Positions 2,214-54,158 of a stretch of DNA of 64,000 bases are shown here, one piece after another. Source of the DNA: Candidatus Micrarchaeia archaeon (GTDB lineage Archaea > Micrarchaeota > Micrarchaeia > Norongarragalinales > CAINOH01); the NCBI GenBank assembly GCA_041663565.1, contig JBAYMJ010000002.1, positions 17,947-81,946 on the forward strand, written 5' to 3'. A program made the translations under genes and the position numbers. The notes beneath the pieces were generated by a model that did no database searches, was not told the origin of the DNA, and saw only the letters and a list, made by a program, of their open reading frames with translations. The first letter of the stretch is position 1, and each line of letters begins with the position of its first letter.

Positions 2214-3578
2214 ATGGCAAAAAACATTGCTGGGGCGGGAAAAAAGAAAAAAAACGGGCCAGATGTGACCGCCACTTCAAAGGTCTTTTTCCTCACATAC
2301 GGCTGCACGTTCAACGCCGCTGACACGGACGCATTGAAGGCCGCAGTTGCGAAAAAGTACGGGATTGCGGAGTCGGAAGCCGAGGCAGGCGTCGTGGTGA
2401 TGAACACCTGCTCGGTGAAGGACTCGACGCAGGAAAAGATACTCTTCAAGGCAAAGAAACTGGACGCCCAAGGAAAGAAGCTGGTGGTTACCGGCTGCCT
2501 TGCACAGGTGTCGCCCGAACTGGTCGAAAAGGCGGTTCCGGGTGCAAGCATTGTCGGAGTGTGGTCGAACGCCAAGATGGTGGATGCGATAGGGTGGGTG
2601 TTGGAAGGAAAAAAAGTCGTCCAAACCAAAAGAACCTCAATCCTTCCTTTCAACGTCACGGTTGACGGCATCTTTGCCCGCGTGCAAATCAGCCGCGGGT
2701 GCCTCGGAAGCTGCACCTACTGCTCGACAAAGATTGCGAGGGGCAGCCTGCAGAGCTTTCCGCAGGAAGAAATCGTGGCTGCAGTCGAGTCCGCGGTCCG
2801 GCAGGGAGCTAAGGAAATCCAGCTTACAAGCCAGGACACGGCCTGCTACGGTTTCGACTTTGGGGGCAACAGGAAGGGAGGCAGGAAAGGAGTAACGAAG
2901 AAACCCGAACATACCCTCGCAACGCTCCTTGAAAGCATATGCAATATTCCCGGCCGCTTCCGCGTGCGCATCGGGATGGGAAACCCGGAGCACTTCTGGA
3001 AGATAAGGAAGGAGCTTGCAAAGGCAATCTGCTCAACGGACAAGGTTTACCGTTTCCTCCACATACCTGTGCAGAGCGGAAGCGACCCCGTGCTTGCGGC
3101 GATGAACCGAGGATACAGGGCATCCGACTATGCAAGGCTCGTGGAATTCTTCCGCAAGAAAATACCAGACCTGACGGTTGAGACCGACGTCATCGTGGGC
3201 TTTCCCACCGAGACCGGGAAGGACTTTGAAGAGACTGTTGCGCTCGTTGAAAAAACGCGGCCGCAGATTACGAACATATCAAAATACAGCGCCAGGCCCA
3301 AGACCATTGCCGCAAGAATGAAACAAGTCGGCCGCAAGACCGTCAACGAGCGCAGCACCAAGATGAACGTGCTGTGCCGCAGTATTGCGCTGGAAGAAAA
3401 CGGGAAGCTGGCCGGAAAAACCTACGACGTGCTGGTCACGGAAAGGAAGGCCGGAGGATTTTCCGCAAGGGCGCCGAACTACAAGACCGTGCTCCTTGCA
3501 AGGGGCGCCATTGGCTCATTTATTACCGTCCGGACTACTGGTTACGGGCAATGCTACCTGAAGGGAAAAAGGCTGTGA
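2214..3578 (+). CDS. Radical SAM methylthiotransferase, MiaB/MtaB (CDKAL1-like) family
   Basis: N-terminal UPF0004 pattern FFLTYGCTFNAADTD, radical SAM cluster motif GCLGSCTYCSTKIARG and a C-terminal TRAM-like region. Confidence 0.88.
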   Translation: MAKNIAGAGKKKKNGPDVTATSKVFFLTYGCTFNAADTDALKAAVAKKYGIAESEAEAGVVVMNTCSVKDSTQEKILFKAKKLDAQGKKLVVTGCLAQVSPELVEKAVPGASIVGVWSNAKMVDAIGWVLEGKKVVQTKRTSILPFNVTVDGIFARVQISRGCLGSCTYCSTKIARGSLQSFPQEEIVAAVESAVRQGAKEIQLTSQDTACYGFDFGGNRKGGRKGVTKKPEHTLATLLESICNIPGRFRVRIGMGNPEHFWKIRKELAKAICSTDKVYRFLHIPVQSGSDPVLAAMNRGYRASDYARLVEFFRKKIPDLTVETDVIVGFPTETGKDFEETVALVEKTRPQITNISKYSARPKTIAARMKQVGRKTVNERSTKMNVLCRSIALEENGKLAGKTYDVLVTERKAGGFSARAPNYKTVLLARGAIGSFITVRTTGYGQCYLKGKRL

Positions 3579-3586
3579 ACAGTCGA

Positions 3587-4252
3587 ATGGAAAAGACGCA
3601 AGCGGGCAACAAGAAAAAGGAAAACCCGGCCACTATGAGAAAAATTGTCGCAGTAGTTGCGGCAATCGTAGTCCTCCTGGTTTTTGCGACTATCTTTTTC
3701 CTTGGAATCCCGACGGACAGCCATCGGGGAGTGGGTGAAACGCCCAATTCGGCACTGCAGCCAACGCCTTCAGCAAAAGCCCATGCGGCCTGCGTCACTT
3801 CGATTGAGGAGCGGACCGTTCGCGGAAGCTCGATGGAAGGGCTTCTTTCCGACGGCGACACCGTGACGGTCCAGTTTGGCTACTACGGCTGCAACGAGCC
3901 GCAAAGGGGTGAAGTTGCGCTCGTGCACTTTTCAGGCGACGCAAACCCGCTCATCAAGGTCATCAAGGCGGTGCCAGAAGACTCGTTCTCCCTTTCGCAG
4001 GCCTCCTGCGGCTGGAACATAATGGTCAACGGCAATGCATTGCAAAACTCCGAGGCGAAGGACTACTGCATAGGTTACTCCGGCTACCGGATGCTTTCGC
4101 TCTACGTGCAAAGCTACAACGGCATAATCCCGCAGGGCGCCTACCTCGTGCTCGGCAACCTCGTGCAGGGCTCCACCGACAGCACGCGCTTCGGCCTGAC
4201 AAGCAGGGGCAGCCTGCTGGGAAAGGTGGGAATGCCCGCCGACCCCGCATAG
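3587..4252 (+). CDS. Signal peptidase I-like serine peptidase (S26; bacterial-type Ser/Lys boxes)
   Basis: N-terminal TM helix, then GSSMEG (box B-like), LIKVIKAVPED (box D-like, Lys) and GNLVQGSTDSTRFG (box E-like). ATG at 3587 avoids overlap with the preceding gene; the 3374 start is rejected. Confidence 0.7.
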   Translation: MEKTQAGNKKKENPATMRKIVAVVAAIVVLLVFATIFFLGIPTDSHRGVGETPNSALQPTPSAKAHAACVTSIEERTVRGSSMEGLLSDGDTVTVQFGYYGCNEPQRGEVALVHFSGDANPLIKVIKAVPEDSFSLSQASCGWNIMVNGNALQNSEAKDYCIGYSGYRMLSLYVQSYNGIIPQGAYLVLGNLVQGSTDSTRFGLTSRGSLLGKVGMPADPA

Positions 4253-4328
4253 CTCACGGCTCGTGGAAGCTATTGGTTTTAAATCCGCAAAGCAAGAAGT
4301 CTTTATCTAATTTCAAGGGCGAATTGGT

Positions 4329-7460: not shown

Positions 7461-7503
7461 AGGGAAAAACAACGACCCGAACGACAAAGGCGACGATGCA
7501 CTT

Positions 7504-8978: not shown

Positions 8979-9078
8979 AGGGCAGACAAACCAGCCGAAC
9001 CGATTATTCAATTATTTAAACCGAGACGACACTACATACTTTCAGGCCAAAAACCGATTCTCACTAGTTACTGGATGA

Positions 9079-13002
<3,924 letters not shown>

Positions 13003-14769: not shown

Positions 14770-15222
14770 ATGCATATGACACACCGTGGCCAGGGCGCAT
14801 TCGAATACCTGCTGATGCTTGGCGGCGTAGTGCTAGTGGCGGTCATGGTCATCCTCATAATGCAGGGTTCTGCGCAGGGCGCGGACAACGCCCTGCTGCA
14901 GAACCAGAACCAATACAACAGCATAGTGGCCGGCGGGGTGAAGAACACGCTCACGAACGCGCCGCTTTCGTTCATACTCTCGTGCACCGCAGGCTCTGCC
15001 ACCACCTCGTACATAAGCAACAACTCGAACTGCGACGCCGCGTGCAAGGCGGTCGGCTACACCAACGGCACAACGGTGTGCTACACGAGCGGCTGCGCCG
15101 CATCCTGCAACGCCTGCACGACCATAACTTGCAACGGCATCGCGTGGAACGTCATCACGGGGTGCAGCGCGCCTGGAAGCTGCAACATGGACTCGTGCAA
15201 CTGCACGCGCACCGCCGGCTAG
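14770..15222 (+). CDS. Class III signal peptide (type IV pilin-like) protein with a Cys-rich head
   Basis: N-terminus MHMTHRG/QGAFEYLLMLGGVVLVAVMVIL (K/R-G cleavage context plus hydrophobic helix). The C-terminal 80 aa contain 14 Cys. Confidence 0.8.
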   Translation: MHMTHRGQGAFEYLLMLGGVVLVAVMVILIMQGSAQGADNALLQNQNQYNSIVAGGVKNTLTNAPLSFILSCTAGSATTSYISNNSNCDAACKAVGYTNGTTVCYTSGCAASCNACTTITCNGIAWNVITGCSAPGSCNMDSCNCTRTAG

Positions 15223-15280
15223 TACGCGCATAACTTCTGCCATTTTAAACGGCAAATCCCCTTCTTGTTCCGGTGGAAAA

Positions 15281-15850
15281 ATGAAAGGCCAGACGTCACT
15301 TGAGTACCTGCTGATACTTGCAGGGACCGTGATGCTCGTGCTCCTCGTCTCGACCATAGTTAACTCCGCCATGGCGCCCGGGCTGGAGAACGCGAGAAAC
15401 AACAGCACCGCCCAGCTTTGGAACGCGTCAAACGACTGGGGGACGCCGACAATCCCGTCAACCACTGCCACCCCGACGCCCACGGTGGGCCCGATTGAGT
15501 TCTTCTTCCAGGTGCAGGACAACGGCGGCAGCAGCGTCGCATTGTTCCTGCCTACGGGCGACGTCGTCCTCAAGACCGGCTGCTACGCGGGGGCTGCGGG
15601 AAGCTGCGCCAACCCGCCGGATGGGTCGTTTGCGGTGAGGGACCCTGCGGGCGTCTCGCACGCGTTCATCAACCCGTCCGGAAGCCTCTGCATCGAGGAC
15701 GCAAACTGCAACGGGAACGACGCGAGCTGCAACAGCCCGCCCGACGACTCGTTTACGACGCAGAACTCCGCAGGCACTACTGTATCATACATAAGCCCGG
15801 CTGGCGCGCTTTGCCTTACGGGCAGCCTTGTCCAGTATGGGAACCCCTAG
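15281..15850 (+). CDS. Class III signal peptide (pilin-like) protein with an internally repeated head
   Basis: MKG/QTSLEYLLILAGTVMLVLLV and a Thr/Pro linker. Two clear repeats of about 40 aa follow (C..SC..PPD.SF.....AG......I.P.G.LC), preceded by a weaker third copy. Confidence 0.8.
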   Translation: MKGQTSLEYLLILAGTVMLVLLVSTIVNSAMAPGLENARNNSTAQLWNASNDWGTPTIPSTTATPTPTVGPIEFFFQVQDNGGSSVALFLPTGDVVLKTGCYAGAAGSCANPPDGSFAVRDPAGVSHAFINPSGSLCIEDANCNGNDASCNSPPDDSFTTQNSAGTTVSYISPAGALCLTGSLVQYGNP

Positions 15851-15858
15851 ATGATTTG

Positions 15859-17421
15859 ATGGACCGCTTCAGGATTTCGTTGACTGTCGCACTTTTCCTG
15901 TGCCTGCTGCAAGGCGCCTGCGCGGGAAACCTCAGCGTGAAGAGCGGACAGCTCAACATGACAGGCAACCTCTACGTCGGGCCCAACTATCTCTTCGTCA
16001 ACTCAACTTCGGGACTCGTCGGAATCGGCACAACTGCACCGGGAACGATTCTGGAAATCTCGTCAACAAACAACCCGCTAGCCGCGGGGTCCGCATCTAT
16101 ACTCCTGGCCGGCGACGTCAACAAGGAGCGCGTGGCGATACGCTCAAGCCAGGCTGCGGTATTCATTGCGGCCGGCCACCGGGGCACCGTTACGTCCCCG
16201 TCGGCCTTGCTTGCGGGCGACGCGATGGGTTACTACCAGCTCGGGGGGTACACGGGCACGGGATACACGCGAGCTGCGTGGATTACCGGATATGCAGAAG
16301 AGAACTGGAACGCAACGAACTGGGGAGGCAACCTCATATTCTCCACCATATCCCCCGGGACCACGTCCATCACCGAGAAGGTGAGGATAACCGGTGCGGG
16401 CAACGTCGGCATCGGCACGACGAACCCGGCAGCAAAGCTCCATGTCAATGGGGACGTGCGCATTACTGGGGATTCGTTTGATTCCATATTCATAAACCAG
16501 GGCGGGGCGTTGTATATCAGCGCTCCAAGTTCAAAGAAGATATATTTCGACACGACTGGAGTCGGACCGAAGGTTTCCTTTGATATGACTAGTGGCAACG
16601 TCGGCATCGGGACAACCGCACCGGCATCAAAGCTTCAGGTCTCCGGAGGCGAAATCCAGACCGGGACCAGCGGCACTGCCTGCTCGGGTTCCAATGCCGG
16701 CGCGATTCGTTGGAGCGGCTCGCACTTCTACGGGTGCACCGGCAGCTTCTGGATCCAGCTGGACTCGGGCGCGTACTCGTCATGCAACGAGATAAAGGCA
16801 GCAAGCCCTGGAGCCGGTGACGGCGCGTACACCATCTATCCGTCGGGCGTTGCAATCAACGTCTATTGCGACATGACCACCAACGGCGGCGGGTGGACAA
16901 TCGTAACTGCGCAGTCCGGAGCGGGGCAATACGGCCTTGCCGACGACACGGAAGCGACTGGCAACCCGTTGTCATACCAGGCGTACAACCTGAACCTGAT
17001 TAAAAAGATGTACATAAGCTCGGTCTCGTCGGAGTCGCTGATAAAGCGCAGCACCGGCGCCTGGATAAAGGCAAGCCACGCGCTGTTCGACAACAACCTT
17101 GTGGGCATGGGCAACCAGCACCCCCATTGGCAAGTCACTGTGACCGCCAGCAATGGTGCAACTGCTGCAAACTGCCAGATGGGCTACTCGAACTTCTATA
17201 ATTCGAATGGCGGCGACTTCGGCATAACCACCTCGGGGGTCGTCTTCGACCACCACAACCCCAGCACGTATTACCACTTGAACGCCGGCTGCGCAAGCAT
17301 GTACTTTTACAATTATGGCACTACATACAACGTGAACACCGCCTTGGGAGATTGGCCGGTGACGAATGCCTGCGTTCCCAGCGGGACCGAACTGGGCAGC
17401 TGGTACGCCGCGATGAGATGA
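15859..17421 (+). CDS. Secreted stalk protein with a C-terminal fibrinogen-related-domain-like head (paralog 1)
   Basis: Leader [40 protein letters not shown] and [16 protein letters not shown] motifs, neck [24 protein letters not shown], then CNEIKAASPGAGDGAYTIYPSGVAINVYCDMTTNGGGWTIV. Start set by paralog alignment. Confidence 0.85.
   Translation: MDRFRISLTVALFLCLLQGACAGNLSVKSGQLNMTGNLYVGPNYLFVNSTSGLVGIGTTAPGTILEISSTNNPLAAGSASILLAGDVNKERVAIRSSQAAVFIAAGHRGTVTSPSALLAGDAMGYYQLGGYTGTGYTRAAWITGYAEENWNATNWGGNLIFSTISPGTTSITEKVRITGAGNVGIGTTNPAAKLHVNGDVRITGDSFDSIFINQGGALYISAPSSKKIYFDTTGVGPKVSFDMTSGNVGIGTTAPASKLQVSGGEIQTGTSGTACSGSNAGAIRWSGSHFYGCTGSFWIQLDSGAYSSCNEIKAASPGAGDGAYTIYPSGVAINVYCDMTTNGGGWTIVTAQSGAGQYGLADDTEATGNPLSYQAYNLNLIKKMYISSVSSESLIKRSTGAWIKASHALFDNNLVGMGNQHPHWQVTVTASNGATAANCQMGYSNFYNSNGGDFGITTSGVVFDHHNPSTYYHLNAGCASMYFYNYGTTYNVNTALGDWPVTNACVPSGTELGSWYAAMR
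16594..16640 (+). repeat. 47-nt cassette identical to 18132..18178 (mid-gene, paralog 1 vs paralog 2)
   Basis: Direct comparison: ggcaacgtcggcatcgggacaaccgcaccggcatcaaagcttcaggt is identical in both genes, while the flanks diverge. Confidence 0.9.
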
Positions 17422-17501
17422 TTGGAATCTCGGAACGTTGACTTTAAGGAGAATTGTTGCCGGACAAATGAAACGACTCTAGGAAAATGGACATGCGATT
17501 T

Positions 17502-18860
17502 ATGGACCGCTTCAGGATTTCATTGGCCGCCGCGCTTTTCCTGTGCCTAGTGCAGGCCGCGTGCGCGGGCAACCTAAGCGTGAAGAGCGGACAGCTCAAC
17601 ATGACTGGCAACCTCTACGTGGGCGCTTCTGGGTCCGCGCTCTTTGTAAACTCAACGTCGGGTTACGTTGGAATTGGGACGACGAACCCAATCCGCGCAT
17701 TGCATATCTATGGCAACCCAGTTGTCGAACTCATACTTGAGGATGGCGCGGCAAATGCCGACTACCGGAAATGGAATTTCGTTGTCAACGGCGGCGCGGG
17801 GTCGAACAGCAGCTTTTACCTCCGCCAGCTCAACGACGCTGGAACTGCTGGCGCAGTCCCGTTCATGGTCAGCGGCGCAGGCAACGTCGGCATAGGCGCC
17901 AGCCCAATCAGCAAGCTGGAAGTCGCCGCATTGAACAGTTCCGTGGCAATCGGCGGTTACCTGGGGAACCCGCCGACATACCAGACAGGAATCCAGTTCC
18001 TCAACTACGGGGTATATCACGTCGGCTTGCGCTACGACGGCCAGGGCAACCTGATTTATGAAAGTGCGGGAAACAGCGTAAACCCGATGCTGTGGTATAA
18101 TGGCCAGCCCGCCAACTTCCTAGTGAGGAACGGCAACGTCGGCATCGGGACAACCGCACCGGCATCAAAGCTTCAGGTTTCCGGTGGCGAAATCCAGACG
18201 GGAACAAGCGGAGCGTCCTGCACGAGCGCCAACACCGGTGCAATACGCTGGGATGGCTCGTATTTCCTCGGGTGCACCGGCTCCGGGTGGGCGCGACTGA
18301 GCTACGGCACGTATTCCGCCTGCAATGCCATCAAGGTCGCCACGCCAAGCGCGGCCAACGGCACGTATACGGTATACATCAACAACACGGCAACACAGGT
18401 CTACTGCGACATGACCTCAGATGGCGGCGGGTGGACGCTGATTGTCGGCATCGGCCCGGACAACAACCACGACACCGCAAGCGCAGTCACCCCGGAGAAC
18501 CTCGTCTCGGCAACAGGCAAGGGCAAGTTCAGCGACGCCTGGATAAACCTCCTGCGGACCGCCCCGGGGACAGAGGGGATAGTAAGGCTGAACTGCGGCA
18601 CCTCAGTTGATTATTTCGACTACAGGACAACCGCGTGGCAGGCCACGTATACCGCCAACCCGAACGGGGTCGGCTGGGACGTGTACACCCAGCCGTGGGG
18701 GACCGCGCCGTACAGCGGCGGAGGGGCGAGCTACCCGAACCAGCCCGGGCCGTGGGCGTACTCGGTATGGGGCCAGAACACGATTTATGGCTATAGCGGG
18801 TGGACCGGCTGCTACACCGGTTCCGCAACTGGCGGCCCCGGCACGGTTTGGATGAGATAA
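17502..18860 (+). CDS. Secreted stalk protein with a C-terminal fibrinogen-related-domain-like head (paralog 2)
   Basis: [94 protein letters not shown] and CNAIKVATPSAANGTYTVYINNTATQVYCDMTSDGGGWTLIV. In-frame upstream ATGs at 17487 and 17493 are possible alternatives. Confidence 0.85.
   Translation: MDRFRISLAAALFLCLVQAACAGNLSVKSGQLNMTGNLYVGASGSALFVNSTSGYVGIGTTNPIRALHIYGNPVVELILEDGAANADYRKWNFVVNGGAGSNSSFYLRQLNDAGTAGAVPFMVSGAGNVGIGASPISKLEVAALNSSVAIGGYLGNPPTYQTGIQFLNYGVYHVGLRYDGQGNLIYESAGNSVNPMLWYNGQPANFLVRNGNVGIGTTAPASKLQVSGGEIQTGTSGASCTSANTGAIRWDGSYFLGCTGSGWARLSYGTYSACNAIKVATPSAANGTYTVYINNTATQVYCDMTSDGGGWTLIVGIGPDNNHDTASAVTPENLVSATGKGKFSDAWINLLRTAPGTEGIVRLNCGTSVDYFDYRTTAWQATYTANPNGVGWDVYTQPWGTAPYSGGGASYPNQPGPWAYSVWGQNTIYGYSGWTGCYTGSATGGPGTVWMR
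17511..17569 (+). repeat. 59-nt 5' cassette identical to 18902..18960 (leader region, paralog 2 vs paralog 3)
   Basis: ttcaggatttcattggccgccgcgcttttcctgtgcctagtgcaggccgcgtgcgcggg is identical in both copies. Paralogs 1 and 4 carry diverged versions at 15859.. and 20357.. Confidence 0.9.
18132..18178 (+). repeat. 47-nt cassette identical to 16594..16640
   Basis: See the partner copy; verified base by base. Confidence 0.9.
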
Positions 18861-18892
18861 ATATAATGATGTTTTGAGCCAGAGATGATTTC

Positions 18893-20320
18893 GTGAACAG
18901 CTTCAGGATTTCATTGGCCGCCGCGCTTTTCCTGTGCCTAGTGCAGGCCGCGTGCGCGGGAAACCTCAGCGTGAAAAGCGGCCAGCTCAACATGACAGGA
19001 AACCTCTACGTCGGCGCATCGGGCAACGCACTTTTTGTCAATACCGCATCGGGACTTGTGGGCATCGGAACGACAAGCCCTTCGCAGAGGCTCGACGTGA
19101 CTGGAACGGTCAATGCGTACGCTTTCACGGTCAACGGCTCGGCCTTCAGCACCAGCCAGTGGACGACTGCGGGCTCTAACATATACTATTCCTCAGGCAA
19201 CGTCGGCATCGGCACGACGAACCCGGCAACGGTGTTGCACATCTCCGGCCCGAACGAGGGAACCTCGACGTACTACTCCCAACTGAGGGTCGATGGGACC
19301 GGAGCCTACCCTTGGAACATTGCAGGAATTTCGTTGAACCCCAACGGGGCAGTCCAATCCCACCTTCGTTTTCTCGAGAATGGCGTAGTCAAGTTCCAAA
19401 TACGATACAACAACGGAAACACGCAGGATAGCAAACTGAAATTTTACAGCTTCATCACAGGTACGGACATGGCGACGTTTGATGCGACAAGCGGCTACGT
19501 CGGCATCGGGACAACCAGCCCCGCTTCCAAACTGCAAGTCTCCGGTGGGGAAGTCCAGGTGGGAAACAGCGGCGCCTCGTGCACAAGCGCCAACGCGGGC
19601 GCAATCCGCTGGAGCGGCACGCACTTCTATGGTTGCACAGGCAGCGGCTGGGCGCAGCTGGACTCCGCGGTATACCCGTCGTGCGGCGCCATAAAGACTG
19701 CAAACCCGAGCCTTTCCGACGGGGTATACACGATATACCCTTCGGGCATCGCCATGCAGGTTTACTGCGACATGACCACGCTGGGAGGGGGGTGGACGCT
19801 CGTTCTTCTCAACAGCCAGTATTCCGTCCCTCCGAAGCCGACCTGGACAAACGTCACAACCGGGAACGTCATTACCGGCACGTTCGGCTCAACCCTTGAC
19901 AGCGCGTTCGACCAGTTCCTTGGCGTCGCATATTGGAACACGCTGGGAACGCAGATGCGGGTCGAGGCGGGCAGCTCGTCCGCGTCGATTTCGCACCGGG
20001 CGCGCTACAACTTCACGCTCAACTCGGCGAACAACTATGCCCTGACCATGACGAACGCAATCCTTGACATAGGCTCGACCTACCCGGGAATGGCCACGTA
20101 CCACGCTGCGGGCAATTATCAGCTCTCGACCTTTGACGCGGACCACGACGTGTACTCCGCAAACTGCGCCAATTCCTACGGAAACACCGCCTGGTGGTAT
20201 GGAGCCTGCTGGGATGGGAACTTCTGGGGCGGCGGAGAATCGGGAAGCCACCAGAACAAGCCATTCTGGACCGGCAGCAGCGCGGACTACTACGACTGGG
20301 GCGCAATCTGGATACGGTAA
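18893..20320 (+). CDS. Secreted stalk protein with a complete fibrinogen C-terminal-like domain (paralog 3)
   Basis: GTG start; leader [23 protein letters not shown]. FReD hallmarks [41 protein letters not shown] and the distal [37 protein letters not shown]. Confidence 0.88.
18902..18960 (+). repeat. 59-nt 5' cassette identical to 17511..17569
   Basis: See the partner copy; verified base by base. Confidence 0.9.
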
Positions 20321-20356
20321 ATTAAACAGCAGTTCATCTAAACTAGTAACGATATC

Positions 20357-21697
20357 ATGGACCGGTTCAGATTCTCATTGTCTGTCACTCTCTTCTTGTG
20401 CATCGTGCAGGCCTCTTGCGCGGGCAACCTCAGCGTGAAGAGCGGACAGCTCAACATGACAGGAAACCTCTACGTGGGTCCTGCCGGAAACGCGCTTTTT
20501 GTAAACTCCACGTCGGGACTTGTGGGCATCGGCACCGCAAGCCCCTCGGCACAACTGCACGTTGTGGGCAACGCAGTCATCACCGGCAGCATCGGAATCG
20601 GGACAACCAACTCCCTTGCGAAAGAACACATCCTTTTGGGGTCTGCAGGGACTACGCCAAACTTCACCATCGCACCTTCCTTGATTTTGGAGCATTCCGG
20701 GTACGACGGCCAACTGCAATTTTTAGCCCCGTCAACAAGGGCATCTTACATCATGTTCGGCGACGAGCGGAATTATGCCCGTGGAAGCATAGTCTACGAC
20801 CATCGCGCCGGTTCGGAAATGCTGGCGCTTTCCAGCCAGAACGGAAGCATAACAATACTTGCAGGAGGCAACGTCGGCATAGGAACGACGAGTCCGGCGT
20901 CAAAGCTGCAAGTCACGGGAGGCGAAATCCAAACTGGCAACAGCTCCGCAGCCTGCTCAAGCGCCAATGCAGGAGCAATCCGCTGGACGGGCGTGGTGTT
21001 CCAGGGGTGCACGGGCACGAACTGGACGACGTTCAGTTTCGGCGGGCAGGACGGGTCGACCCAGCAGCGGGCGGGCATAAGCTGCAAGGCGATAATCAAC
21101 GCCGGCTTCTCGAAGGGCAACGGCAACTATTGGGTCGACCCCGACGGCGGGGACACGGTCAACGCGTTCCAGGCATATTGCGACATGACAACGGACGGCG
21201 GAGGCTGGACGAAAGTCTATCACGGGACACCGGACCAGGCGTCCACGACGATTGCGTACATTACGGGGACCGCGCCCCTAGTCACCACGTCGTCGACGAT
21301 GATGTTCGCGTTCTTTGACGAGACTACGAACGCCACGTCAAGCGCGTGGAAGTTCCAGACGCCGTCCGCATTCACCACCAACACGCCGATGGCGAACGTC
21401 CAATGCGGGTACGTGACAATCACTGCCACGAGGATAAGCGACAGCCTGACGGTCAGCAACGTCCTCCGGTACGGGTATGGCAGCTTCGGCAGCAGGTGCG
21501 ACGAAGGATGCAGCAGCACCTGGGGGCAAATCTGCCTGAAAAGCACCTCGGCCCAGGGAACCGCCGGCGGGTACGCCGATTTCCCGATGTACACGTCTTT
21601 TGCGTGGGCGGGATACGACAATTGCGCTAGGTCTGATGAGACGTATTCTACTACGCAGTGCCCGACGACCAAGAGGTTCGTGATATTCGTAAGATGA
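20357..21697 (+). CDS. Secreted stalk protein with a C-terminal fibrinogen-related-domain-like head (paralog 4)
   Basis: [94 protein letters not shown] and CKAIINAGFSKGNGNYWVDPDGGDTVNAFQAYCDMTTDGGGWTKV. Confidence 0.82.
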   Translation: MDRFRFSLSVTLFLCIVQASCAGNLSVKSGQLNMTGNLYVGPAGNALFVNSTSGLVGIGTASPSAQLHVVGNAVITGSIGIGTTNSLAKEHILLGSAGTTPNFTIAPSLILEHSGYDGQLQFLAPSTRASYIMFGDERNYARGSIVYDHRAGSEMLALSSQNGSITILAGGNVGIGTTSPASKLQVTGGEIQTGNSSAACSSANAGAIRWTGVVFQGCTGTNWTTFSFGGQDGSTQQRAGISCKAIINAGFSKGNGNYWVDPDGGDTVNAFQAYCDMTTDGGGWTKVYHGTPDQASTTIAYITGTAPLVTTSSTMMFAFFDETTNATSSAWKFQTPSAFTTNTPMANVQCGYVTITATRISDSLTVSNVLRYGYGSFGSRCDEGCSSTWGQICLKSTSAQGTAGGYADFPMYTSFAWAGYDNCARSDETYSTTQCPTTKRFVIFVR

Positions 21698-21756
21698 AGG
21701 CGGCCACAAACACGCGGCTGCCAAAGCCATTTTTATTCCGCGGCCCGCTGTAATGT

Positions 21757-21921
21757 ATGATGGAACGGGCGCAGACTTCGCTTGAATACCTGCTGATACT
21801 CGCGGGCGCAATAATGCTCGTCCTGCTGGTGGCGCAGGTGATCACCGGCGCGATGCTGCCCTACAACTCCGCAAACAACGCGGCTGTGGCGACGGTCTGG
21901 CCGACGGGAATGAACGGTTGA
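21757..21921 (+). CDS. Mini class III signal peptide (pilin-like) protein, 54 aa; absent from the supplied ORF track
   Basis: Hand translation gives MMERA/QTSLEYLLILAGAIMLVLLVAQVITGAMLPYNSANNAAVATVWPTGMNG, stop TGA at 21919-21921. The N-terminal motif matches the other pilin-like genes here. Confidence 0.7.
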   Translation: MMERAQTSLEYLLILAGAIMLVLLVAQVITGAMLPYNSANNAAVATVWPTGMNG

Positions 21922-21926
21922 TTCTC

Positions 21927-22283
21927 ATGACTGAATACAAGCAGGCAATAGTGCTCCGCGCCGACCTTGGCATGGGCAAGGGAAAGCTGGTGGCGCAGGG
22001 ATGCCACGCAAGCATCGACGCGTTCGAGAAGGCCAAGTCCTCCAAGCCGGAATGGGTGGAGGCGTGGAAGGACGGCGGGTGCAGGAAGATTGCCGTGAAG
22101 GTCCAGTCGGAGCGCGAGCTTGTTGGGATATTCATGGCAGCAAAGAAGGCCAGGCTGCCCTGCTCGCTGATTACAGACGCGGGCCACACGCAGGTCGAGC
22201 CGGGAAGCAAGACTGCAGTTGCGATAGGGCCTGCACCGGAAAGCGAAATTGATGAAATTACTGACAAGCTCAAACTGCTTTGA
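21927..22283 (+). CDS. pth2: Peptidyl-tRNA hydrolase, archaeal/eukaryotic type (Pth2)
   Basis: YKQAIVLRADLGMGKGKLVAQGCHAS...DAGHTQVEPGSKTAVAIGP is the Pth2 signature. ATG 21927 preferred to TTG 21918. Confidence 0.92.
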   Translation: MTEYKQAIVLRADLGMGKGKLVAQGCHASIDAFEKAKSSKPEWVEAWKDGGCRKIAVKVQSERELVGIFMAAKKARLPCSLITDAGHTQVEPGSKTAVAIGPAPESEIDEITDKLKLL

Positions 22284-22307
22284 TTAATTCTGTCGCCTAT
22301 CCGCCAA

Positions 22308-22580
22308 TTATTTCTCGTCGTCGTCCTGCTTCCACAGCGTGCGCTTCTTGTTGATTAGTTCCTTGGATAGCTGGCACAAAAGGGAGCTCACGCGCAATGC
22401 CTCGTCGGGGGAGAGACGGAAACCGACCGTGCCGATGGTGTTTGCGATTCGGACGGTGATTGTGCCGTCGCGCGGGTAGCCGTTTGCGGAAGTGGGCTCG
22501 GCGGTCTCGAGCTTGAGCGCGCTCTTGTGCGACACGCCGTCGTCGTCCTTGTACCAGTGCACCAGCTCGTCTTCAATCAT
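22308..22580 (-). CDS. Small hypothetical protein (90 aa)
   Basis: MIEDELVHWYKDDDGVSHKS... Trimmed to ATG 22578-22580, because the upstream part of ORF 22308..22850 is antisense to the pilin leader at 22735. Confidence 0.45.
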   Translation of the reverse strand: MIEDELVHWYKDDDGVSHKSALKLETAEPTSANGYPRDGTITVRIANTIGTVGFRLSPDEALRVSSLLCQLSKELINKKRTLWKQDDDEK

Positions 22581-22734
22581 TACTGTGGATTCACTTTGTT
22601 GGGTGGGTTGCAAGTAGCACTTGGACGGCGAATATAAACAAAAGCTGACGCGATTTCCGGTGAAGCCGCCGGAACCCCGTCCAACAAAGCTGCAGATGCA
22701 GAACCAATAAAACGCCGTGCGCGATTGCATTAAT

Positions 22735-24447
22735 ATGGCAATACGCGGCCAGGGCGCCTTCGAGTATCTTCTGCTGCTTGGCGGGACGGTTCTTGTCGCG
22801 ACCATAGTCCTTGTGATGACGCAGGGGTCGATCCAAAACGCGAACAACACCTACGGTGCGGCGTCAGGCAATTACGCAGATTTTGTAACGGGCAGCGTAA
22901 ACGACATCTTCGCAAACGGCTCGCTCACGCACGAGGCGCCGACGGGCTGCATATACGGCAACCCGGCCTGCGATGCAGGCTACTACTGCGACAACGGAAC
23001 CTGCAAACAGGCTAATGCACTGCTCAAAGGGTACGCGCTCGACCCGGCCGGAGTTCCGCTTCTTGGAGTGACAATCCACCTTGTCGGCGGCAATACCGCA
23101 GACGCGCTCACCAACGCGTCCGGGTATTACGAGATGGCCTTCGCAATCAACGGCTCGTCCGCGATGTACGCTGCCACTGCCGCAAGAAGCCCCGCAAACG
23201 TGCAAGCCGGTGCGACGGTCAACCTTACTGCCGGCTTTGCAACAATCCAGAAATTCACCTTGAGTTATAACCCCGCGTCGCTTTCCGGTTTCGTGCGCGA
23301 CCCGGCAGGCAACGGGATTGCGGGCGTCGCGCTTTCGTGCGGTTCCTATTCGGCTACGTCCGGGAGCGACGGTTCCTATGCCATAGGCAACGTGCCAATG
23401 GCTTCCGCAAGCACGACCAGTACCCTTGCGGGGTCGAAGACTCCGACTTTCGTTTCCAACTCAACGCCGGCGACGTTCAACGCGGGCGTAACCAACTCGC
23501 AGAACTTGCAAATGTCCTATTCCAACGCGAATGTTTCAGGGTACGTACGTGACGTGTCAAGCGCAGGCGTAGCCGGCGCTGCGGTAAGCTGCGGCGGCGT
23601 GTCGACGACTACCGCAAGTGACGGCGCGTATTCGATAAGCGGCCTTTTGATGTCCGCTGCTTCTTCTTCGTGCACCCTCGCGGCCTCCAAGTCCGGTTAC
23701 ACTTCTGCAAGCGCAACAGCAACTCTTACTGCAGGCGCAATCACTTCGGGCCAGAACCTTGCCATCAATCTCATAGTCGTTGGCGCCTGCGGTTCAAGCA
23801 ACGGCGCGGCTTTCTATTCCGCCCCGTCCTCGGGCCTTTGCACTGCTGGAAGCGCTTCCGCATTGTCGGGCGCAGGGCCTTGGTCGTGGACTTGTGCCGG
23901 TACGTATGGCGGCTCAACCGCAAGCTGTTATGCAAACCTCATCGTGAACGGCGCGTGCGGCGCAGCTGCAACAAGCTATGCCTATTCTGCCGGCGGCTTC
24001 TCCGGCGCATTGTGCAATGCCGGGACGGCAAGCCCGAGCAGCCCATCGTTTCCTGCCGCGGGAGGGTCAACTAGTTGGGCCTGCCTTGGCTTGAATGGCG
24101 GAAGCGGCGCTTCCTGTTCGGCATCAAGGGCAAACCACCCCTGTGCAGTTGCAGGAGGAACGATATACGGGTCGTTCTGCCGTTTTAGCGGTTCGTCTTG
24201 CCCTGGCGGATGGACACAATATGGCAGCTGGTCAACGACAACGGCAGGACACAGCTCTTCTTGCGGCTGGGTAAGTTCGCCTTGGCCGGAACCGAGCTGC
24301 TGCAGCACCGGCTCCCACGACTTTTCCAATACCGCAGTGGAATCCTGCGGGTATTGGCAGTATTGTTGCACTTCGTGGACTTGCCCGACCAACTGTTGGC
24401 AGACCGCATCTGCAATCGTGACGGAAGTCGGGTGTTACCAGCCTTGA
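22735..24447 (+). CDS. Large class III signal peptide (pilin-like) adhesin with CarboxypepD_reg-like repeats and Cys-rich modules
   Basis: MAIRG/QGAFEYLLLLGGTVLVATIVLV; three G(Y/F)VRD..G.G(I/V)AGA.(L/V)SCG....T.SDG.Y.I repeats; two GACG...LC..G...........W.C.G..GG...SC modules; a Cys/Trp-rich terminal domain. Confidence 0.82.
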   Translation: MAIRGQGAFEYLLLLGGTVLVATIVLVMTQGSIQNANNTYGAASGNYADFVTGSVNDIFANGSLTHEAPTGCIYGNPACDAGYYCDNGTCKQANALLKGYALDPAGVPLLGVTIHLVGGNTADALTNASGYYEMAFAINGSSAMYAATAARSPANVQAGATVNLTAGFATIQKFTLSYNPASLSGFVRDPAGNGIAGVALSCGSYSATSGSDGSYAIGNVPMASASTTSTLAGSKTPTFVSNSTPATFNAGVTNSQNLQMSYSNANVSGYVRDVSSAGVAGAAVSCGGVSTTTASDGAYSISGLLMSAASSSCTLAASKSGYTSASATATLTAGAITSGQNLAINLIVVGACGSSNGAAFYSAPSSGLCTAGSASALSGAGPWSWTCAGTYGGSTASCYANLIVNGACGAAATSYAYSAGGFSGALCNAGTASPSSPSFPAAGGSTSWACLGLNGGSGASCSASRANHPCAVAGGTIYGSFCRFSGSSCPGGWTQYGSWSTTTAGHSSSCGWVSSPWPEPSCCSTGSHDFSNTAVESCGYWQYCCTSWTCPTNCWQTASAIVTEVGCYQP

Positions 24448-30847: not shown

Positions 30848-30861
30848 ATTTCATTCCCCCT

Positions 30862-31467: not shown

Positions 31468-31472
31468 TTTTC

Positions 31473-31727: not shown

Positions 31728-31734
31728 TTTCGCC

Positions 31735-32205: not shown

Positions 32206-32215
32206 TTACATCAAC

Positions 32216-32599: not shown

Positions 32600-32647
32600 G
32601 TTCAACAAATCCCCCTCGATTTGCGTAACTATCTTTGGAATGACGAA

Positions 32648-36070: not shown

Positions 36071-36649
36071 CTAGTTTTCAAAACCAAAGGCAGGTACTTG
36101 GCCGTCCGTAAGGTTGGAAGTCGAATACAGCCCCTCGCCGAAGATGAACAGTTGCGAGCTGTTTGCTGACTCCAGGCCAAGACCGACATCCACCTTCGCG
36201 CACCCAAGTGCCTCGATTGCGGAGTCGTTGCCCCAGTACTTGACCTTGAGCACGGACTGGTTCGAGTCAAATGAAAGAACTTTTGAAAACGTGGCTTTTG
36301 CATCGCCGGCAAAAAAATCCACGTGCTTCGAAGGCTCTGCCCCACAACCCACCCACAGCGAAGGGACCAGCCCGCGTCTTTCCGACGCCTCAAACGCAAC
36401 CGAGGCCCATCGTGCGAGTTTTTCTGCCGCATCCTGTGCAACCTGCGCTGGCGTCGCGCCCCTTGCGCTTGCAAGCACCGCAAGGAAGGACTGCCGCAGG
36501 TTGGCCTCGAAAAAACGCGAGCGGGACAGCAAGACAAAGGTTGCCGCAGTATCGGCCTCGGCATCCGAGCGCGCCGAGGAATATGCTGCTGCCTTGAGCG
36601 CGAAGGGAATCACTATGAAAAGAAGCACCAGGCCGAGGAAACCGCGCAT
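36071..36649 (-). CDS. Pilin-like operon gene 6: MRG/F-type class III signal peptide protein
   Basis: MRG/FLGLVLLFIVIPFAL then a 170-aa soluble domain. ATG 36647-36649 lies 4 nt after the stop of gene 5. Confidence 0.6.
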   Translation of the reverse strand: MRGFLGLVLLFIVIPFALKAAAYSSARSDAEADTAATFVLLSRSRFFEANLRQSFLAVLASARGATPAQVAQDAAEKLARWASVAFEASERRGLVPSLWVGCGAEPSKHVDFFAGDAKATFSKVLSFDSNQSVLKVKYWGNDSAIEALGCAKVDVGLGLESANSSQLFIFGEGLYSTSNLTDGQVPAFGFEN

Positions 36650-36653
36650 AAAA

Positions 36654-37064
36654 TCAGTCGCCCCCGGCTTTCGCCTCGAAAACCACAAGCATCGCCCCGC
36701 CGTCCCTTGGCACGATTATGCGGTTGGTGGAAATGACTTTGGAAGATTTAGAAGGGGCTGCCGCAAATTCTGACAGTAAAATTTCCTTTCCGTCCGGACA
36801 ATGGACCGAAAACGCACTCGCGGCAAACGTGTCCGTTGCCTGCCTGAACTTTTCCCTCAATGCAATTTCCCCTTCCGCGCTTTCGCACGCCGACAATACC
36901 AGGTCGGGCTGCGACGAGGCCGCCAGTGCGATGTCTTCAAGCGCGGTTGAAAGCGCGACCGACTCTAGCGCGTGAACCGGCCGCGTCGCGTGCGGCATCA
37001 GGACCAAAAGCGCGCAGGCAACGGCGAATACTGCGGCGTCAACGAGCATCCAAAACCCCCTCAA
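36654..37064 (-). CDS. Pilin-like operon gene 5 (TTG start overlapping the upstream stop)
   Basis: TTG-RG/FWMLVDAAVFAVACALLVL. The TTG at 37062-37064 overlaps the TGA of gene 4 (TTGA). The only in-frame ATG would delete the RG cleavage context. Confidence 0.55.
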   Translation of the reverse strand: MRGFWMLVDAAVFAVACALLVLMPHATRPVHALESVALSTALEDIALAASSQPDLVLSACESAEGEIALREKFRQATDTFAASAFSVHCPDGKEILLSEFAAAPSKSSKVISTNRIIVPRDGGAMLVVFEAKAGGD

Positions 37065-37411
37065 CGGAAACAATACCTCCAGATGGAAATGCCGTTGACC
37101 GGGGTAGTGATTACGCGGTTCACGCAATAATCTCCACTTGCTTGCGCGGACTGCCCGGCTGGACGCAACGGCAACAGGAGCCCCGACTTGCACGATGCGA
37201 ACGCGCCCGAACACGACCACGCCTCCTTTTCGGACGCAAGGAACGCCTTGAGGTAGTTGTCCGACCGCGTTGCGACCTCGGCATACTGGCTTGCATCCCG
37301 GTGCATCGAGGAAAGAAGGACCGCAAGGCAAGCTATGACTATGGAAAAGGAGACTGCAGCCTCGGCCGTTGAAAACCCCCTGTTCCCATTGCACAGCAAC
37401 CCAAAGCTCAC
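37061..37411 (-). CDS. Pilin-like operon gene 4 (GTG start overlapping the upstream stop)
   Basis: No in-frame ATG exists upstream of the motif NRG/FSTAEAAVSFSIVIACLAVLL. The GTG at 37409-37411 overlaps the TGA of gene 3 (GTGA). Confidence 0.55.
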   Translation of the reverse strand: MSFGLLCNGNRGFSTAEAAVSFSIVIACLAVLLSSMHRDASQYAEVATRSDNYLKAFLASEKEAWSCSGAFASCKSGLLLPLRPAGQSAQASGDYCVNRVITTPVNGISIWRYCFR

Positions 37412-37764
37412 GCCGTTGGCACCCCTCCCGAAAGGTCGCTTACGATTGCGTTCTCGGCCCCGGAAATCTTCACGGGGCACTGCACCTCTTGGATTGCTTT
37501 GGACAGGTTCAAACCCGAAGTGCTTTCCGAAAACGGAAAACCCATCGACAAAGTTGAAGAGCGGAGCGAATAGCTTCCCAAAGTGACGCACGCAAGGCTT
37601 GCAGCTGAAAGCGGGGCGACCTTTCCCAGCCCTTCCGAGTCCAGGCGAAAGAGTGCGCTTTTGCTTGCGCCTACAAGTATGAACGCAGCGGCTGCGTAGG
37701 TTGCAAAGACAAGCAACGCCTCCAGCACCGCCTGACCCTTCCGTTTCCCTTTCATGGCTTCCAT
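37408..37764 (-). CDS. Pilin-like operon gene 3
   Basis: MEAMKGKRKG/QAVLEALLVFATYAAAAFILVG. A 39-nt tandem duplication of the leader lies at the 5' end. Confidence 0.65.
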   Translation of the reverse strand: MEAMKGKRKGQAVLEALLVFATYAAAAFILVGASKSALFRLDSEGLGKVAPLSAASLACVTLGSYSLRSSTLSMGFPFSESTSGLNLSKAIQEVQCPVKISGAENAIVSDLSGGVPTA

Positions 37765-37819
37765 AACCGCCTGTCCCTTTCGTTTTCCTTCCGTGGCTGC
37801 CCGCCCCCGCTGCCGACAA

Positions 37820-38257
37820 CTATCCTGCAAGGAAAATCCTGCACCCTGAATCATAGTAAACGCGGTAGGAGCAGGCCCCTTCGCAGGAACCTGATAGGAC
37901 GCAGTCGTTGGCAACCAAAAAGCTCGCCGGGCCGTCCCTTGAAGCGAATGAGACCACAACCGCCGACCTTTCGAAGTCGTAAGCTATTGCCGCCCCATCG
38001 GGAATGGACACCTTCCCGGAATACTCCGAGCTCTCTCCTGTTGCCTTCGCAAGCTCTGTAGCCGAATGCAGCTCCGCTGCAGCCCTCCTGCACTGCGAGG
38101 CCCTGCTTGCATCCAGCGACAGGCCGTAGGCTTGCGTGTAGGCCGGCGCAAGCAGCGCAACCAGCGCGGCTGACGCGCACAGCACAAGCATCGAGTCAAG
38201 CAGGCCTTGGCCGCGCTGTGCCCGGCAAGCTAAAGGGAGCATATGGCCAACCACCAT
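37820..38257 (-). CDS. Pilin-like operon gene 2
   Basis: ...CRAQRG/QGLLDSMLVLCASAALVALL, then a Cys-containing soluble domain. Start ambiguous between ATG 38257, ATG 38242 and TTG 38263. Confidence 0.62.
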   Translation of the reverse strand: MVVGHMLPLACRAQRGQGLLDSMLVLCASAALVALLAPAYTQAYGLSLDASRASQCRRAAAELHSATELAKATGESSEYSGKVSIPDGAAIAYDFERSAVVVSFASRDGPASFLVANDCVLSGSCEGACSYRVYYDSGCRIFLAG

Positions 38258-38277
38258 CGTCAATCCCTTTCCCCCAA

Positions 38278-38454
38278 CTATGGTTCGAATCCAGTCTGGT
38301 TCAGCAGGCCAACCGCGCGCTGCGAAGTCGAGTTGAGCTGACCCGAGAAATCCGATGCCGTACCCCGCACCTGGCCCAGGAACGCTATGGCAAGCGCCAC
38401 CAGCACGCCTATTATCAGCAGCATCTCCACCGAGACCTGCCCCTTTTCATCCAT
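38278..38454 (-). CDS. Pilin-like operon gene 1: 58-aa candidate major pilin; absent from the supplied ORF track
   Basis: Hand translation of the minus strand gives MDEKG/QVSVEMLLIIGVLVALAIAFLGQVRGTASDFSGQLNSTSQRAVGLLNQTGFEP, stop TAG at 38278-38280. Confidence 0.72.
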   Translation of the reverse strand: MDEKGQVSVEMLLIIGVLVALAIAFLGQVRGTASDFSGQLNSTSQRAVGLLNQTGFEP

Positions 38455-53975: not shown

Positions 53976-54158
53976 TCAGTGGGACACGTTGCTCATGTTC
54001 TGGAGGAAGTCGACGAAGCTGTGCGTCTGGTCGGTTATGGCGTTGTTGGCCTGGCCTGCGGAGCCTTGGACTATCATTATGACTATTGCCGCTATGAGAA
54101 CGCTGCCGCCCAGTATCAGGAGGTATTCGAATGCGCCCTGTCCGCGGAACCTTGCCAT
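53976..54158 (-). CDS. Small class III signal peptide (pilin-like) protein, 60 aa
   Basis: MARFRG/QGAFEYLLILGGSVLIAAIVIMIVQGSAGQANN... from ATG 54156-54158. The upstream part of ORF 53976..54239 is not needed. Confidence 0.72.
   Translation of the reverse strand: MARFRGQGAFEYLLILGGSVLIAAIVIMIVQGSAGQANNAITDQTHSFVDFLQNMSNVSH

Follow-up and report, generated by a model that had tools for sequence, protein, structure and literature searches.

Introduction

How DPANN archaea and bacteria of the candidate phyla radiation (CPR) recognize and attach to their hosts is largely unknown, and most of these organisms are uncultured. Here we describe a 9.7-kb run of genes, at positions 14770-24447 of a 64,000-nucleotide stretch (hereafter, the window) of contig JBAYMJ010000002.1 from a Candidatus Micrarchaeia archaeon, that supplies concrete and testable candidates for these functions. 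The run encodes proteins with class III (prepilin-type) leaders and four Sec-exported fibre proteins, F1-F4, whose tips open with the signature of the fibrinogen-related domain (FReD). We favor, with moderate confidence, the reading that this is a hypervariable surface-adhesin locus: a recombination-prone slot in which heads are shuffled between pilin and trimeric-fibre scaffolds, probably in the service of host or surface recognition.

Several described systems resemble parts of the locus. The MAT fibres of Bdellovibrio are trimeric prey-recognition proteins with an invariant N-terminal domain and swapped adhesive tips, and the same study raises a possible interplay between these fibres and type IV pili (PMC10769870). 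Streptococcus sanguinis has modular pilins, PilB with a vWA module and PilC with a lectin module; the survey of such pilins also lists a bacterial architecture in which a pilin is joined to an S74 tail-fibre chaperone (PMC8179133). Filaments of the Epd type, System 1, have been reported in DPANN archaea, and their main pilin is without a globular head (preprint 10.64898/2026.04.22.720090). In Mia14, a Micrarchaeon in culture, there are two type IV pilus systems, of which one is of the Methanococcus type, and adhesin-like proteins have been proposed to mediate its contact with the host (PMC5498576). The family of each part described below is already known, as is the name that NCBI gives to the FReD signature.

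Gene content of the locus

All gene positions in an earlier description of the locus, made by inspection of the letters and their translations (the sequence-only reading), were confirmed. In order, the locus contains:

14770..15222, + strand: w150, a 150-amino acid (aa) class III protein (PF04021, 26.9 bits)
15281..15850, + strand: w189, a 189-aa class III protein (PF04021, 23.7 bits, exactly the cutoff)
15859..17421, + strand: F1, a 520-aa Sec-leader fibre (NF040941, 61 bits; PF00147, 27.8 bits)
17502..18860 (alternative start 17487), + strand: F2, a 452-aa Sec-leader fibre (NF040941, 55 bits)
18893..20320, + strand: F3, a 475-aa Sec-leader fibre with a complete fibrinogen-related head (PF00147, 59.9 bits)
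20357..21697, + strand: F4, a 446-aa Sec-leader fibre (NF040941, 62.9 bits; PF01410 and PF00147, start only)
21757..21921, + strand: w54, a 54-aa headless class III mini-pilin (PF04021, 21.3 bits, below cutoff)
21927..22283, + strand: Pth2 peptidyl-tRNA hydrolase, a housekeeping gene outside the adhesin set (PF01981, 145 bits)
22308..22580, - strand: w90, a conserved 90-aa backbone protein outside the adhesin set, found at the same position in relatives
22735..24447, + strand: w570, a 570-aa modular class III protein (PF04021, 25.9 bits; PF13620, 65 bits, in three stretches)

The genes are co-oriented and closely spaced, as had been reported. The 90-aa gene is the only one on the minus strand, and spacers measure 5-65 bp except for the 154 bp preceding w570; F1 begins 8 bp past w189, and Pth2, whose presence is confirmed, 5 bp past w54. 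For w90 we found no leader and no Pfam or NCBIfam match. One gene start needs revision: F2, previously begun at 17487, probably starts at 17502, which yields the 452-aa protein deposited as P0014. Identical deposited proteins also exist for F1 (P0013) and F4. The NCBI name of the deposited copies is 'fibrinogen-like YCDxxxxGGGW domain-containing protein', and those of F1 and F4 are assigned to Candidatus Micrarchaeia archaeon, which places the window in a DPANN archaeon. One ENA metagenome contig also carries the window sequence.

AT-rich, TATA-like elements lie 26-39 nt upstream of w150, w189, F3, F4, w54 and w570 (for w150 TTTATAT, at -28; the element of w54 is at -27 and that of w570 at -29), whereas only 4.2% of random positions have such an element in that range. 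Their presence ahead of six genes suggests that the locus is divided into several short transcription units rather than transcribed as one operon.

Four fibre proteins with the plan of MAT fibres

Two export routes meet in the locus, as the sequence-only reading had proposed. One is marked by the class III leaders, with Q as residue +1 and E as residue +5; on the other, F1-F4 share a Sec-type leader (MDRFRISL...LFLCL.Q..CA|G) that ends in ACA|G and that ends in AYA|G or ATA|G in Micrarchaeia homologues. A lipoprotein anchor for F1-F4 was considered, given the conserved Cys in 'ACAG' and an AliA_AliB-family gene in the window, and was rejected. Because the homologues P0043 and P0119 have AYA|G and ATA|G at the corresponding position, the [GA][AS]CA|G segment of F1-F4 is read as an AxA signal peptidase I site, with no lipobox. 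The AliA_AliB-family gene (PF01889) lies at 44964-45878 on the plus strand; this family has recently been linked to archaeal lipoprotein biogenesis.

Residues 1-41 of the four proteins are 78-93% identical in pairwise comparisons, and residues 24-41, the first 18 of the predicted mature proteins, are invariant. In this N-terminal module the ratio of nonsynonymous to synonymous substitution rates (dN/dS) is about 0.1, with dS 0.28-0.78. Recent gene conversion is ruled out by these values as the source of the identical N-termini; F1-F4 are old paralogues, and the module is constrained by purifying selection rather than recently converted. In the neck, which has the consensus GGEIQTG.S...C...N.GAIRW.G..F.GCTG..W, dS is 0.6-1.3. 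The stalk is variable and contains GNVGIGTT-type repeats.

It is the stalk that ties these proteins to known fibres. That of F1 matches Bdellovibrio MAT fibres in the PDB (8oml, E 5e-15; 8ond, 5e-12; 8ol4, 1e-9; 8on4, 1e-8; 8ojn, 2e-5). F1 also matches the PHROG tail-fibre family phrog_9942 (E 3e-19), and PHROG tail-fibre families match the stalks of all four proteins. In an AlphaFold2 (AF2) model, a monomer prediction only, stalk residues 71-180 have low confidence, with a predicted local distance difference test score (pLDDT) of 43-57.

Thus the stalk repeats of F1-F4 are homologous by sequence to those of the Bdellovibrio bacteriovorus MAT fibres Bd1334, Bd2133, Bd2439 and Bd3182, and the likeness extends to the overall plan: both have a signal peptide and a fibre stalk, the N-terminal domain does not vary among paralogues, and the adhesive tips at the C-terminus are exchangeable; in F1-F4 these tips cannot be aligned beyond about 50 residues. 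Both are multigene families, in organisms that must, or in the case of this archaeon presumably must, recognize another cell. The two groups also differ. F1-F4 are archaeal and have fibrinogen-type tips, whereas fibrinogen is not mentioned in the MAT study (PMC10769870). They are 446-520 aa long, against about 1000 for MAT fibres, and their N-terminal modules resemble those of MAT fibres in design. In relatives of this archaeon, moreover, F-type stalks and tips also stand behind class III pilin leaders.

One complete FReD head and three divergent tips

The sequence-only reading had described four FReD proteins and, in them, lectin heads. The signature is indeed present on all four: NF040941 scores are 55-64 bits (cutoff 30) and PF00147 scores 23-60 bits (cutoff 22), and the heads of F1-F4 start YCDMT..GGGWT (F1 YCDMTTNGGGWT; F2 YCDMTSDGGGWT; F4 YCDMTTDGGGWT). 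NF040941, which all four proteins pass, models a 46-residue domain signature only and is silent on stalk, pilin linkage and locus. The complete fold, like the term lectin head, is supported only for F3. Over the 221 positions of PF00147, the match covers 14-201 in F3, 13-151 in F1, 13-46 in F2 and the first ~45 in F4, and with hhalign about 50 residues of the F1, F2 and F4 heads align to the FReD profile (45 columns for F2, 52 for F4).

The F3 head (residues ~255-475) was modelled by AF2 with pLDDT mostly 85-97. Its sequence matches in the PDB include ficolin-3, tenascin-R, MFAP4 and tachylectin 5A (E ~1e-10). Foldseek returns ANGPTL6, FGL1, ficolins, tachylectin 5A and FIBCD1, with E ~1e-13 and template modelling (TM) scores of 0.70-0.76. 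Aligned to ficolin-3, F3 keeps the Ca2+-site motif FDADHD together with NCA and WWY..C; the DADHD, NCA and WWY..C columns vary little or not at all among 21 members of the family. The model indicates that the F3 tip is a complete ficolin-like FReD fold, and its sequence keeps the Ca2+-site motif together with the adjacent disulphide, which in this fold borders the ligand pocket. No equivalent Ca2+-site motif aligns in F2 or F4, and that of F1 is a degenerate FDHHN.

The remaining tips diverge after the signature. In F2 it is followed by a rare C-terminal half: only four homologues of the F2-type head are detectable, the best being a Paceibacterota type IV pilin, P0121, at 66% identity. In F4 the divergent C-terminal half is Cys-rich, and the whole protein has 12 Cys.

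Ficolins, tachylectin 5A and FIBCD1 are the closest described counterparts of the F3 head in fold, in the DxDxD of the Ca2+ site and in the neighbouring disulphide. As in the animal FReD lectins, a stalk, oligomeric in those lectins and putatively so in F3, ends in FReD heads. Unlike the collagen or coiled-coil stalks of the animal proteins, the F stalk is a tail-fibre-like beta-helix; identity is about 25%; and F1, F2 and F4 keep only the signature of the N-terminal subdomain.

Class III proteins resemble modular and Epd-type pilins

The curated cutoff of PF04021 (Class_IIIsignal), 23.7 bits, is passed by w150, w189 and w570, which bears out their earlier assignment as class III proteins; w54, at 21.3 bits, falls below it. 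All four leaders have the same anatomy: the predicted cut is preceded by a basic and a small residue and followed directly by Q (+1), E stands at +5, and a hydrophobic helix spans ~20 residues. Their cores are RG|QGAFEYLLMLGGVVLVAVMVILI in w150, KG|QTSLEYLLILAGTVMLVLLV in w189, RA|QTSLEYLLILAGAIMLVLLV in w54 and RG|QGAFEYLLLLGGTVLVATIVLV in w570. A PF04021 leader with Q at +1 is the signature of substrates of the Methanococcus Epd/EppA system. Across the window, a regular-expression search finds eight Q+1 class III leaders, compared with 0.02 in shuffled sequence. Half of them lie within the 9.7-kb locus, a modest enrichment (rough binomial p about 0.02).

The proteins differ in what follows the leader. 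In w150 (leader MHMTHRG|QGAFEYLL) the hydrophobic helix precedes a head of ~85 aa with 12 Cys, and in w189 (MKG|QTSLEYLL) the head consists of three ~41-aa repeats (F.v.d..G..v..I.p.G.LC...). The headless w54 (MMERA|QTSLEYLL) could polymerise and is a candidate filament subunit of the Epd/Flp type. Three CarboxypepD_reg (Ig-like, PF13620) domains follow the leader of w570 (MAIRG|QGAFEYLL), which has two GxCG...W.W.C repeats, a Cys-rich 'CPGGWTQ' head at the C-terminus and 27 Cys in total. The w189 and w570 heads have no sequence match in the PDB, and no PHROG or NCBIfam family was found for the heads of w150, w189 or w570. Homologues of the C-terminal part of w570 mostly reflect a GxCG repeat that is widespread in bacteria and CPR. 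Taken together, the repeats and head of w570 are also similar to two other sequences: a class III protein of 481 aa (36% identity over 360 aa) from relative A, one of two related Micrarchaeia lineages, A and B, and the C-terminus of P0012, itself a FReD-bearing protein.

A further class III protein of the window bears on the fibres:

61721..63007, - strand: w428, with the class III leader VSRG|QTALEYLL, a GNVGIGTT stalk motif and a Cys-rich head (PF04021, 21.3 bits, below cutoff)

It shares 40% identity with a class III fibre of 460 aa from relative A and has a weak PDB match to tail fiber gp9 (E 0.007). The predicted architecture of w428 places a pilin leader and a fibre stalk in one protein, so the two can be combined in this genome.

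Like the modular type IV pilins of bacteria, w150, w189, w570, w428 and the pilin-FReD fusions of relatives graft a binding module onto a pilin N-terminus; in w570 the PF04021 N-terminus is joined to the three PF13620 domains. Here the proteins are archaeal, with PF04021-type leaders and Q at +1, whereas the survey of modular pilins deals with bacterial IPR012902 pilins only and fibrinogen appears in it only as a ligand tested for binding (PMC8179133). Another difference is that no pilus assembly genes lie near this locus.

The likeness to the Epd/System 1 filaments of Methanococcus maripaludis rests on the PF04021 leader with Q at +1, on short headless pilins, and on the placement of minor pilins at separate loci. 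The three headless mini-pilins of the window (54, 58 and 60 aa) fit the headless main pilin of System 1. The sequence-only reading had noted that the locus encodes no assembly ATPase or platform protein; this is so, and neither the ATPase nor the two platform genes that define System 1 were found among those open reading frames (ORFs) of the 64-kb window that had been scanned or given an annotation through synteny, a result that applies to the window only. The M. maripaludis system has a dedicated peptidase of the EppA/EpdA type.

A variable slot in a conserved backbone

The order of the surrounding housekeeping genes is kept in relatives A and B at 78-97% amino-acid identity. Upstream of the slot this backbone consists of TopoI, His_Phos, NFACT, Cdc48, a 151-aa gene and NurA (- strand). 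It resumes at Pth2 with the 90-aa gene, a 138/184-aa gene, a 238-aa gene, FolC and CTP synthase, all on the minus strand, and a radical SAM gene. Pth2 is 86-87% and w90 94-97% identical between the window and the two relatives, and both are syntenic.

What lies between NurA and Pth2 differs in each of the three lineages. Relative A has one 277-aa gene in the slot, and a 57-aa mini-pilin, 50% identical to w54, after Pth2. In relative B a 277-aa gene precedes orthologues of w150 (147 aa, 74%) and w189 (186 aa, 61%). The window has w150, w189, F1-F4 and w54, with w570 further on. Since the contents differ while the backbone is conserved, the locus is best described as a variable slot in a housekeeping backbone; w570, absent at that position in both relatives, is a separate insertion.

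In the 277-aa proteins, P0002 and P0003, the class III leader and helix run straight into a FReD head, as a direct fusion. Residues 1-104 of P0002, the pilin part, are 53% identical to residues 3-98 of w150, and the heads of P0002 and P0003 are 70% and 66% identical to that of F3. The pilin-FReD linkage is therefore kept at the NurA-Pth2 slot, and the genes are not scattered in related genomes; scattering is what the sequence-only reading had named as telling against it. Its picture of a dedicated toolkit, and any reading of the island as one co-regulated unit or as a mobile element, gives way to a variable slot with Pth2 and w90 as conserved residents and w570 as an independent arrival.

The G+C content (GC) of the locus is uniform with the rest of the window, and the only direct repeats between 14000 and 25000 are paralogous segments, 60-86% identical. 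A diversity-generating retroelement or cassette repeats as the source of variation were also considered and set aside: the Pfam annotation of the called genes includes no reverse transcriptase.

Heads, stalks and leaders recombine

A second array in relative A (L010; JGI 3300027419 Ga0209340_1000123, 3398-11671 and 19172-20617) contains five co-oriented fibre genes. The first encodes a Sec leader, Gly_rich_2 and an S74 chaperone, and each of the four after it combines a class III leader with a Cys-rich, Gly_rich_2 or FReD tip; the 481-aa w570-like protein is encoded nearby. The last fibre of the array, P0048, is a mosaic: w428 is the closest match to residues 1-80, windows of the F4 stalk share 85-90% identity with residues 161-240, and the F2 head, in 40-residue windows, shares 72-95% with residues 401-556. 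In other proteins the Cys-rich 'CPxGW' head of the w570 type is preceded by a class III leader, by a plain membrane anchor or by a FReD. Together, the P0048 mosaic, w428 and this recurrent head indicate that leaders, stalks and heads recombine freely in this lineage.

Similar combinations are found more widely. Class III leaders are fused to FReD (PF00147) in P0002, P0003 and P0018, and other archaeal pilin-type N-termini precede FReD in P0004, P0005, P0009, P0010, P0011, P0015 and locus L016. Bacterial pilin N-termini bear heads of the window's types in P0026, P0029 and P0121. Pilin-FReD fusions recur in Aenigmatarchaeota, in other archaeal metagenome-assembled genomes and in Paceibacterota; among the closest relatives of the F3 head, about twelve have type IV pilin-like N-termini, which are of the archaeal class III, archaeal KGITPVIA or bacterial FTLIELL (Paceibacterota) type. 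The heads of the window are 48-66% identical to those of Paceibacterota pilins.

GTDB representative genomes, a set that does not include the source organism itself, were scanned for FReD proteins. The archaeal matches whose N-termini were read (L014, L015 and L016) are all pilin-like, and the bacterial matches (Bacteroidota, Myxococcota, Spirochaetes, Bdellovibrionales) mostly have Sec or lipoprotein-type leaders. In IMG/VR only distant FReD relatives were found, 31-36% identical, on 19 viral contigs. In a Candidatus Nealsonbacteria (CPR) locus (L013, 3635-7431), a type IV pilin gene lies immediately upstream of a gene for a ~880-aa FReD protein, the head of which is 63% identical to that of F3.

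Interpretation and alternatives

In the reading that we favor, heads would be displayed on two scaffolds. One would be made of Epd-type class III proteins cleaved by an A24 peptidase encoded 35 kb away; w54 may polymerise, and three 'modular pilins' would contribute Cys-rich, repeat or Ig-like heads. The other would be made of the four Sec-exported paralogues, predicted to be cut at ACA|G by signal peptidase I and to comprise the invariant N-terminal module, a trimeric beta-helical stalk, the conserved neck and a divergent tip that opens with the YCDxxxxGGGW subdomain. Recombination would exchange tips between pilin and fibre scaffolds, and the same tips are also found on CPR type IV pilins. 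Most likely they bind ligands, which are probably acetylated groups or glycans, carried by a host cell or some other surface. The DPANN lifestyle, the lectin fold of F3 and the homology of the stalks to recognition fibres make a role in host or surface recognition likely; in view of that lifestyle, the proteins may act in contact between cells.

A number of observations weigh against this reading. F1-F4 would have to stay on the cell after Sec release, yet they have no evident C-terminal anchor and their leader Cys is no lipobox. No assembly ATPase or platform gene turned up in the window ORFs surveyed. Class III genes are dense throughout the window, so adjacency by itself is weak evidence, and the agreement of the three syntenic genomes, all close relatives, comes from common descent and does not count as independent support. 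Pilin fusions account for a minority of the FReD family as a whole: about 10 among the best 150 of 17,098 representative clusters at E <= 0.001. The F1, F2 and F4 tips, moreover, align to the FReD profile only in their first part, as described above, and the AF2 model of the F2 neck and head, built from a 29-sequence alignment, has a pLDDT of 49 and is too poor for a fold search.

Alternatively, the locus could encode one machine, in which Sec-exported FReD fibres dock through the invariant N-terminal module onto pili built of the neighbouring class III proteins. The invariance of the 18 mature N-terminal residues in four paralogues at a dN/dS of about 0.1 fits a shared docking partner, the F1 gene directly follows w189, the fibre array of relative A likewise opens with a Sec-leader protein ahead of its class III-leader fibres, and fibre-pilus interplay has been raised for MAT fibres (PMC10769870). 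Yet relatives fuse a head (P0002), or a stalk and head (P0048), straight to a pilin leader, which favors alternative scaffolds over mounted fibres; several genes have promoter-like elements of their own; and the S-layer or the membrane is an equally plausible target for the module. Two parallel display scaffolds drawing on one pool of heads account for the data at least as well as fibres mounted on pili do, and we regard docking as unlikely. It is also conceivable, though in our judgment improbable, that these are independent surface or secreted proteins for the capture of nutrients or glycans, in the manner of a bindosome, or for envelope structure, rather than for host attachment. Class III leaders occur on archaeal substrate-binding proteins of the bindosome, with thousands of candidates reported (preprint 10.64898/2026.04.22.720090), FReD lectins bind small acetylated ligands, and homologous FReD proteins exist in many free-living bacteria (Bacteroidota, Myxococcota, Spirochaetes). 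However, no transporter genes adjoin the locus, and the long stalks are homologous to fibres of prey or host recognition. Archaeal FReD proteins are concentrated in DPANN, the same heads are found on CPR pilins, and recognition proteins typically show such fast replacement of tips between close relatives.

A viral origin of the four fibre genes, as a tail-fibre or receptor-binding module left behind by an integrated virus, ranks lower still, and we consider it very improbable. PHROG tail-fibre families do match the stalks, and viral contigs do carry FReD relatives, but the closest of these in IMG/VR is only 36% identical. Nor is there a capsid, terminase, integrase or other hallmark gene nearby: the flanks encode NurA, Cdc48, Pth2 and FolC, and GC does not depart from that of the window. 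All four proteins have cellular Sec leaders and an N-terminal module that is common to other chromosomal Micrarchaeia proteins, and the paralogues are old (dS up to 1.3). With no hallmark genes in the flanks and no close viral relative, we rejected a prophage origin. Docking on pili and nutrient capture thus stand below the adhesin-slot reading, and a viral origin below both. We are doubtful of a broader proposal, that episymbiotic DPANN and CPR organisms share a horizontally exchanged pool of receptor-binding heads, placed now on type IV pilins and now on Sec-exported trimeric fibres, and that, here, the fibres dock by their invariant N-terminal module on Epd-type filaments of the nearby mini-pilins, so that a pilus with swappable lectin fibres sets host range.

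Significance

F1-F4 constitute a fibre family homologous to the prey-recognition fibres of Bdellovibrio, and the complete ficolin-like head of F3 makes that protein a candidate for expression and glycan-array screening. The comparisons indicate that heads of one type pass from pilin to fibre scaffolds or the reverse, and that they are exchanged across archaeal and bacterial episymbionts. If heads set partner specificity, their turnover at a fixed slot could mark host range in metagenomes. These results refine an existing picture and establish no new principle, because each part comes from a known family and adhesins close to genes for type IV pili had been proposed for Micrarchaeota before (PMC5498576). 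In the literature that was searched, we found nothing on archaeal MAT-like fibres with fibrinogen-type tips, on the exchange of tips with pilin-borne heads at a fixed genomic slot, or on both types of head being common to CPR pilins; nor did we find anything relevant on fibrinogen-related domains in archaea, or on fibrinogen, DPANN and pili together.

Other genes of the window

Elsewhere in the window are further pilin-like genes and candidate processing enzymes:

3374..4252, + strand: S26 signal peptidase I (PF10502, 59 bits), the true start probably internal to the ORF
36071..38454, - strand: six small genes, including a 58-aa Flp-like headless pilin; two Q+1 class III leaders (regular expression)
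53976..54158, - strand: a 60-aa headless class III mini-pilin, MARFRG|QGAFEYLL (regular expression; translation)
59246..60172, + strand: A24 prepilin peptidase, 308 aa (PF01478, 44.6 bits; YQDAKT and GGGD motif)

The A24 peptidase, 35 kb from the locus, is a candidate for the enzyme that processes all class III leaders, and the S26 signal peptidase I a candidate for the one that cuts the ACA|G Sec leaders of F1-F4. In the cluster at 36071-38454 the 58-aa headless pilin is followed by genes for 147, 115, 116, 131 and 205 aa. The two Q+1 leaders are on the 58-aa and 115-aa proteins, and two further N-termini look class III-like by eye; the 58-aa pilin scores 23.0 bits with PF04021 and 29.3 bits with Flp1_like, both below cutoffs. 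The cluster resembles a set of major and minor pilins, with no ATPase or platform gene alongside. The 60-aa mini-pilin gene lies directly downstream of one for a 691-aa transglutaminase-like membrane protein (54258-56333, - strand).

At 50496-53261 (+ strand) are genes for a thioredoxin-domain protein, an ArsP-type permease and a 410-aa membrane protein, the last with a CPHC motif and an NPC-containing transmembrane part and without a Pfam match. They could form an extracytoplasmic disulphide-handling system, which would be relevant to Cys-rich heads such as that of w570. GC is lower (0.50) in the 52-54 kb stretch.

The Cdc48/VCP gene of the backbone (9085-13002, + strand; 1305 aa) contains an intein bearing a LAGLIDADG endonuclease, and its orthologues in both related lineages are intein-free (713-714 aa). 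At 30464-32677 (- strand), five consecutive genes for small proteins (127, 201, 84, 156 and 153 aa) are kept in the same order in relatives; each protein has a C-terminal hydrophobic segment and none matches a family. Finally, a 114-nt tRNA at 56309-56422 (- strand), matched by Rfam and missed by ARAGORN, is probably an intron-containing archaeal tRNA.

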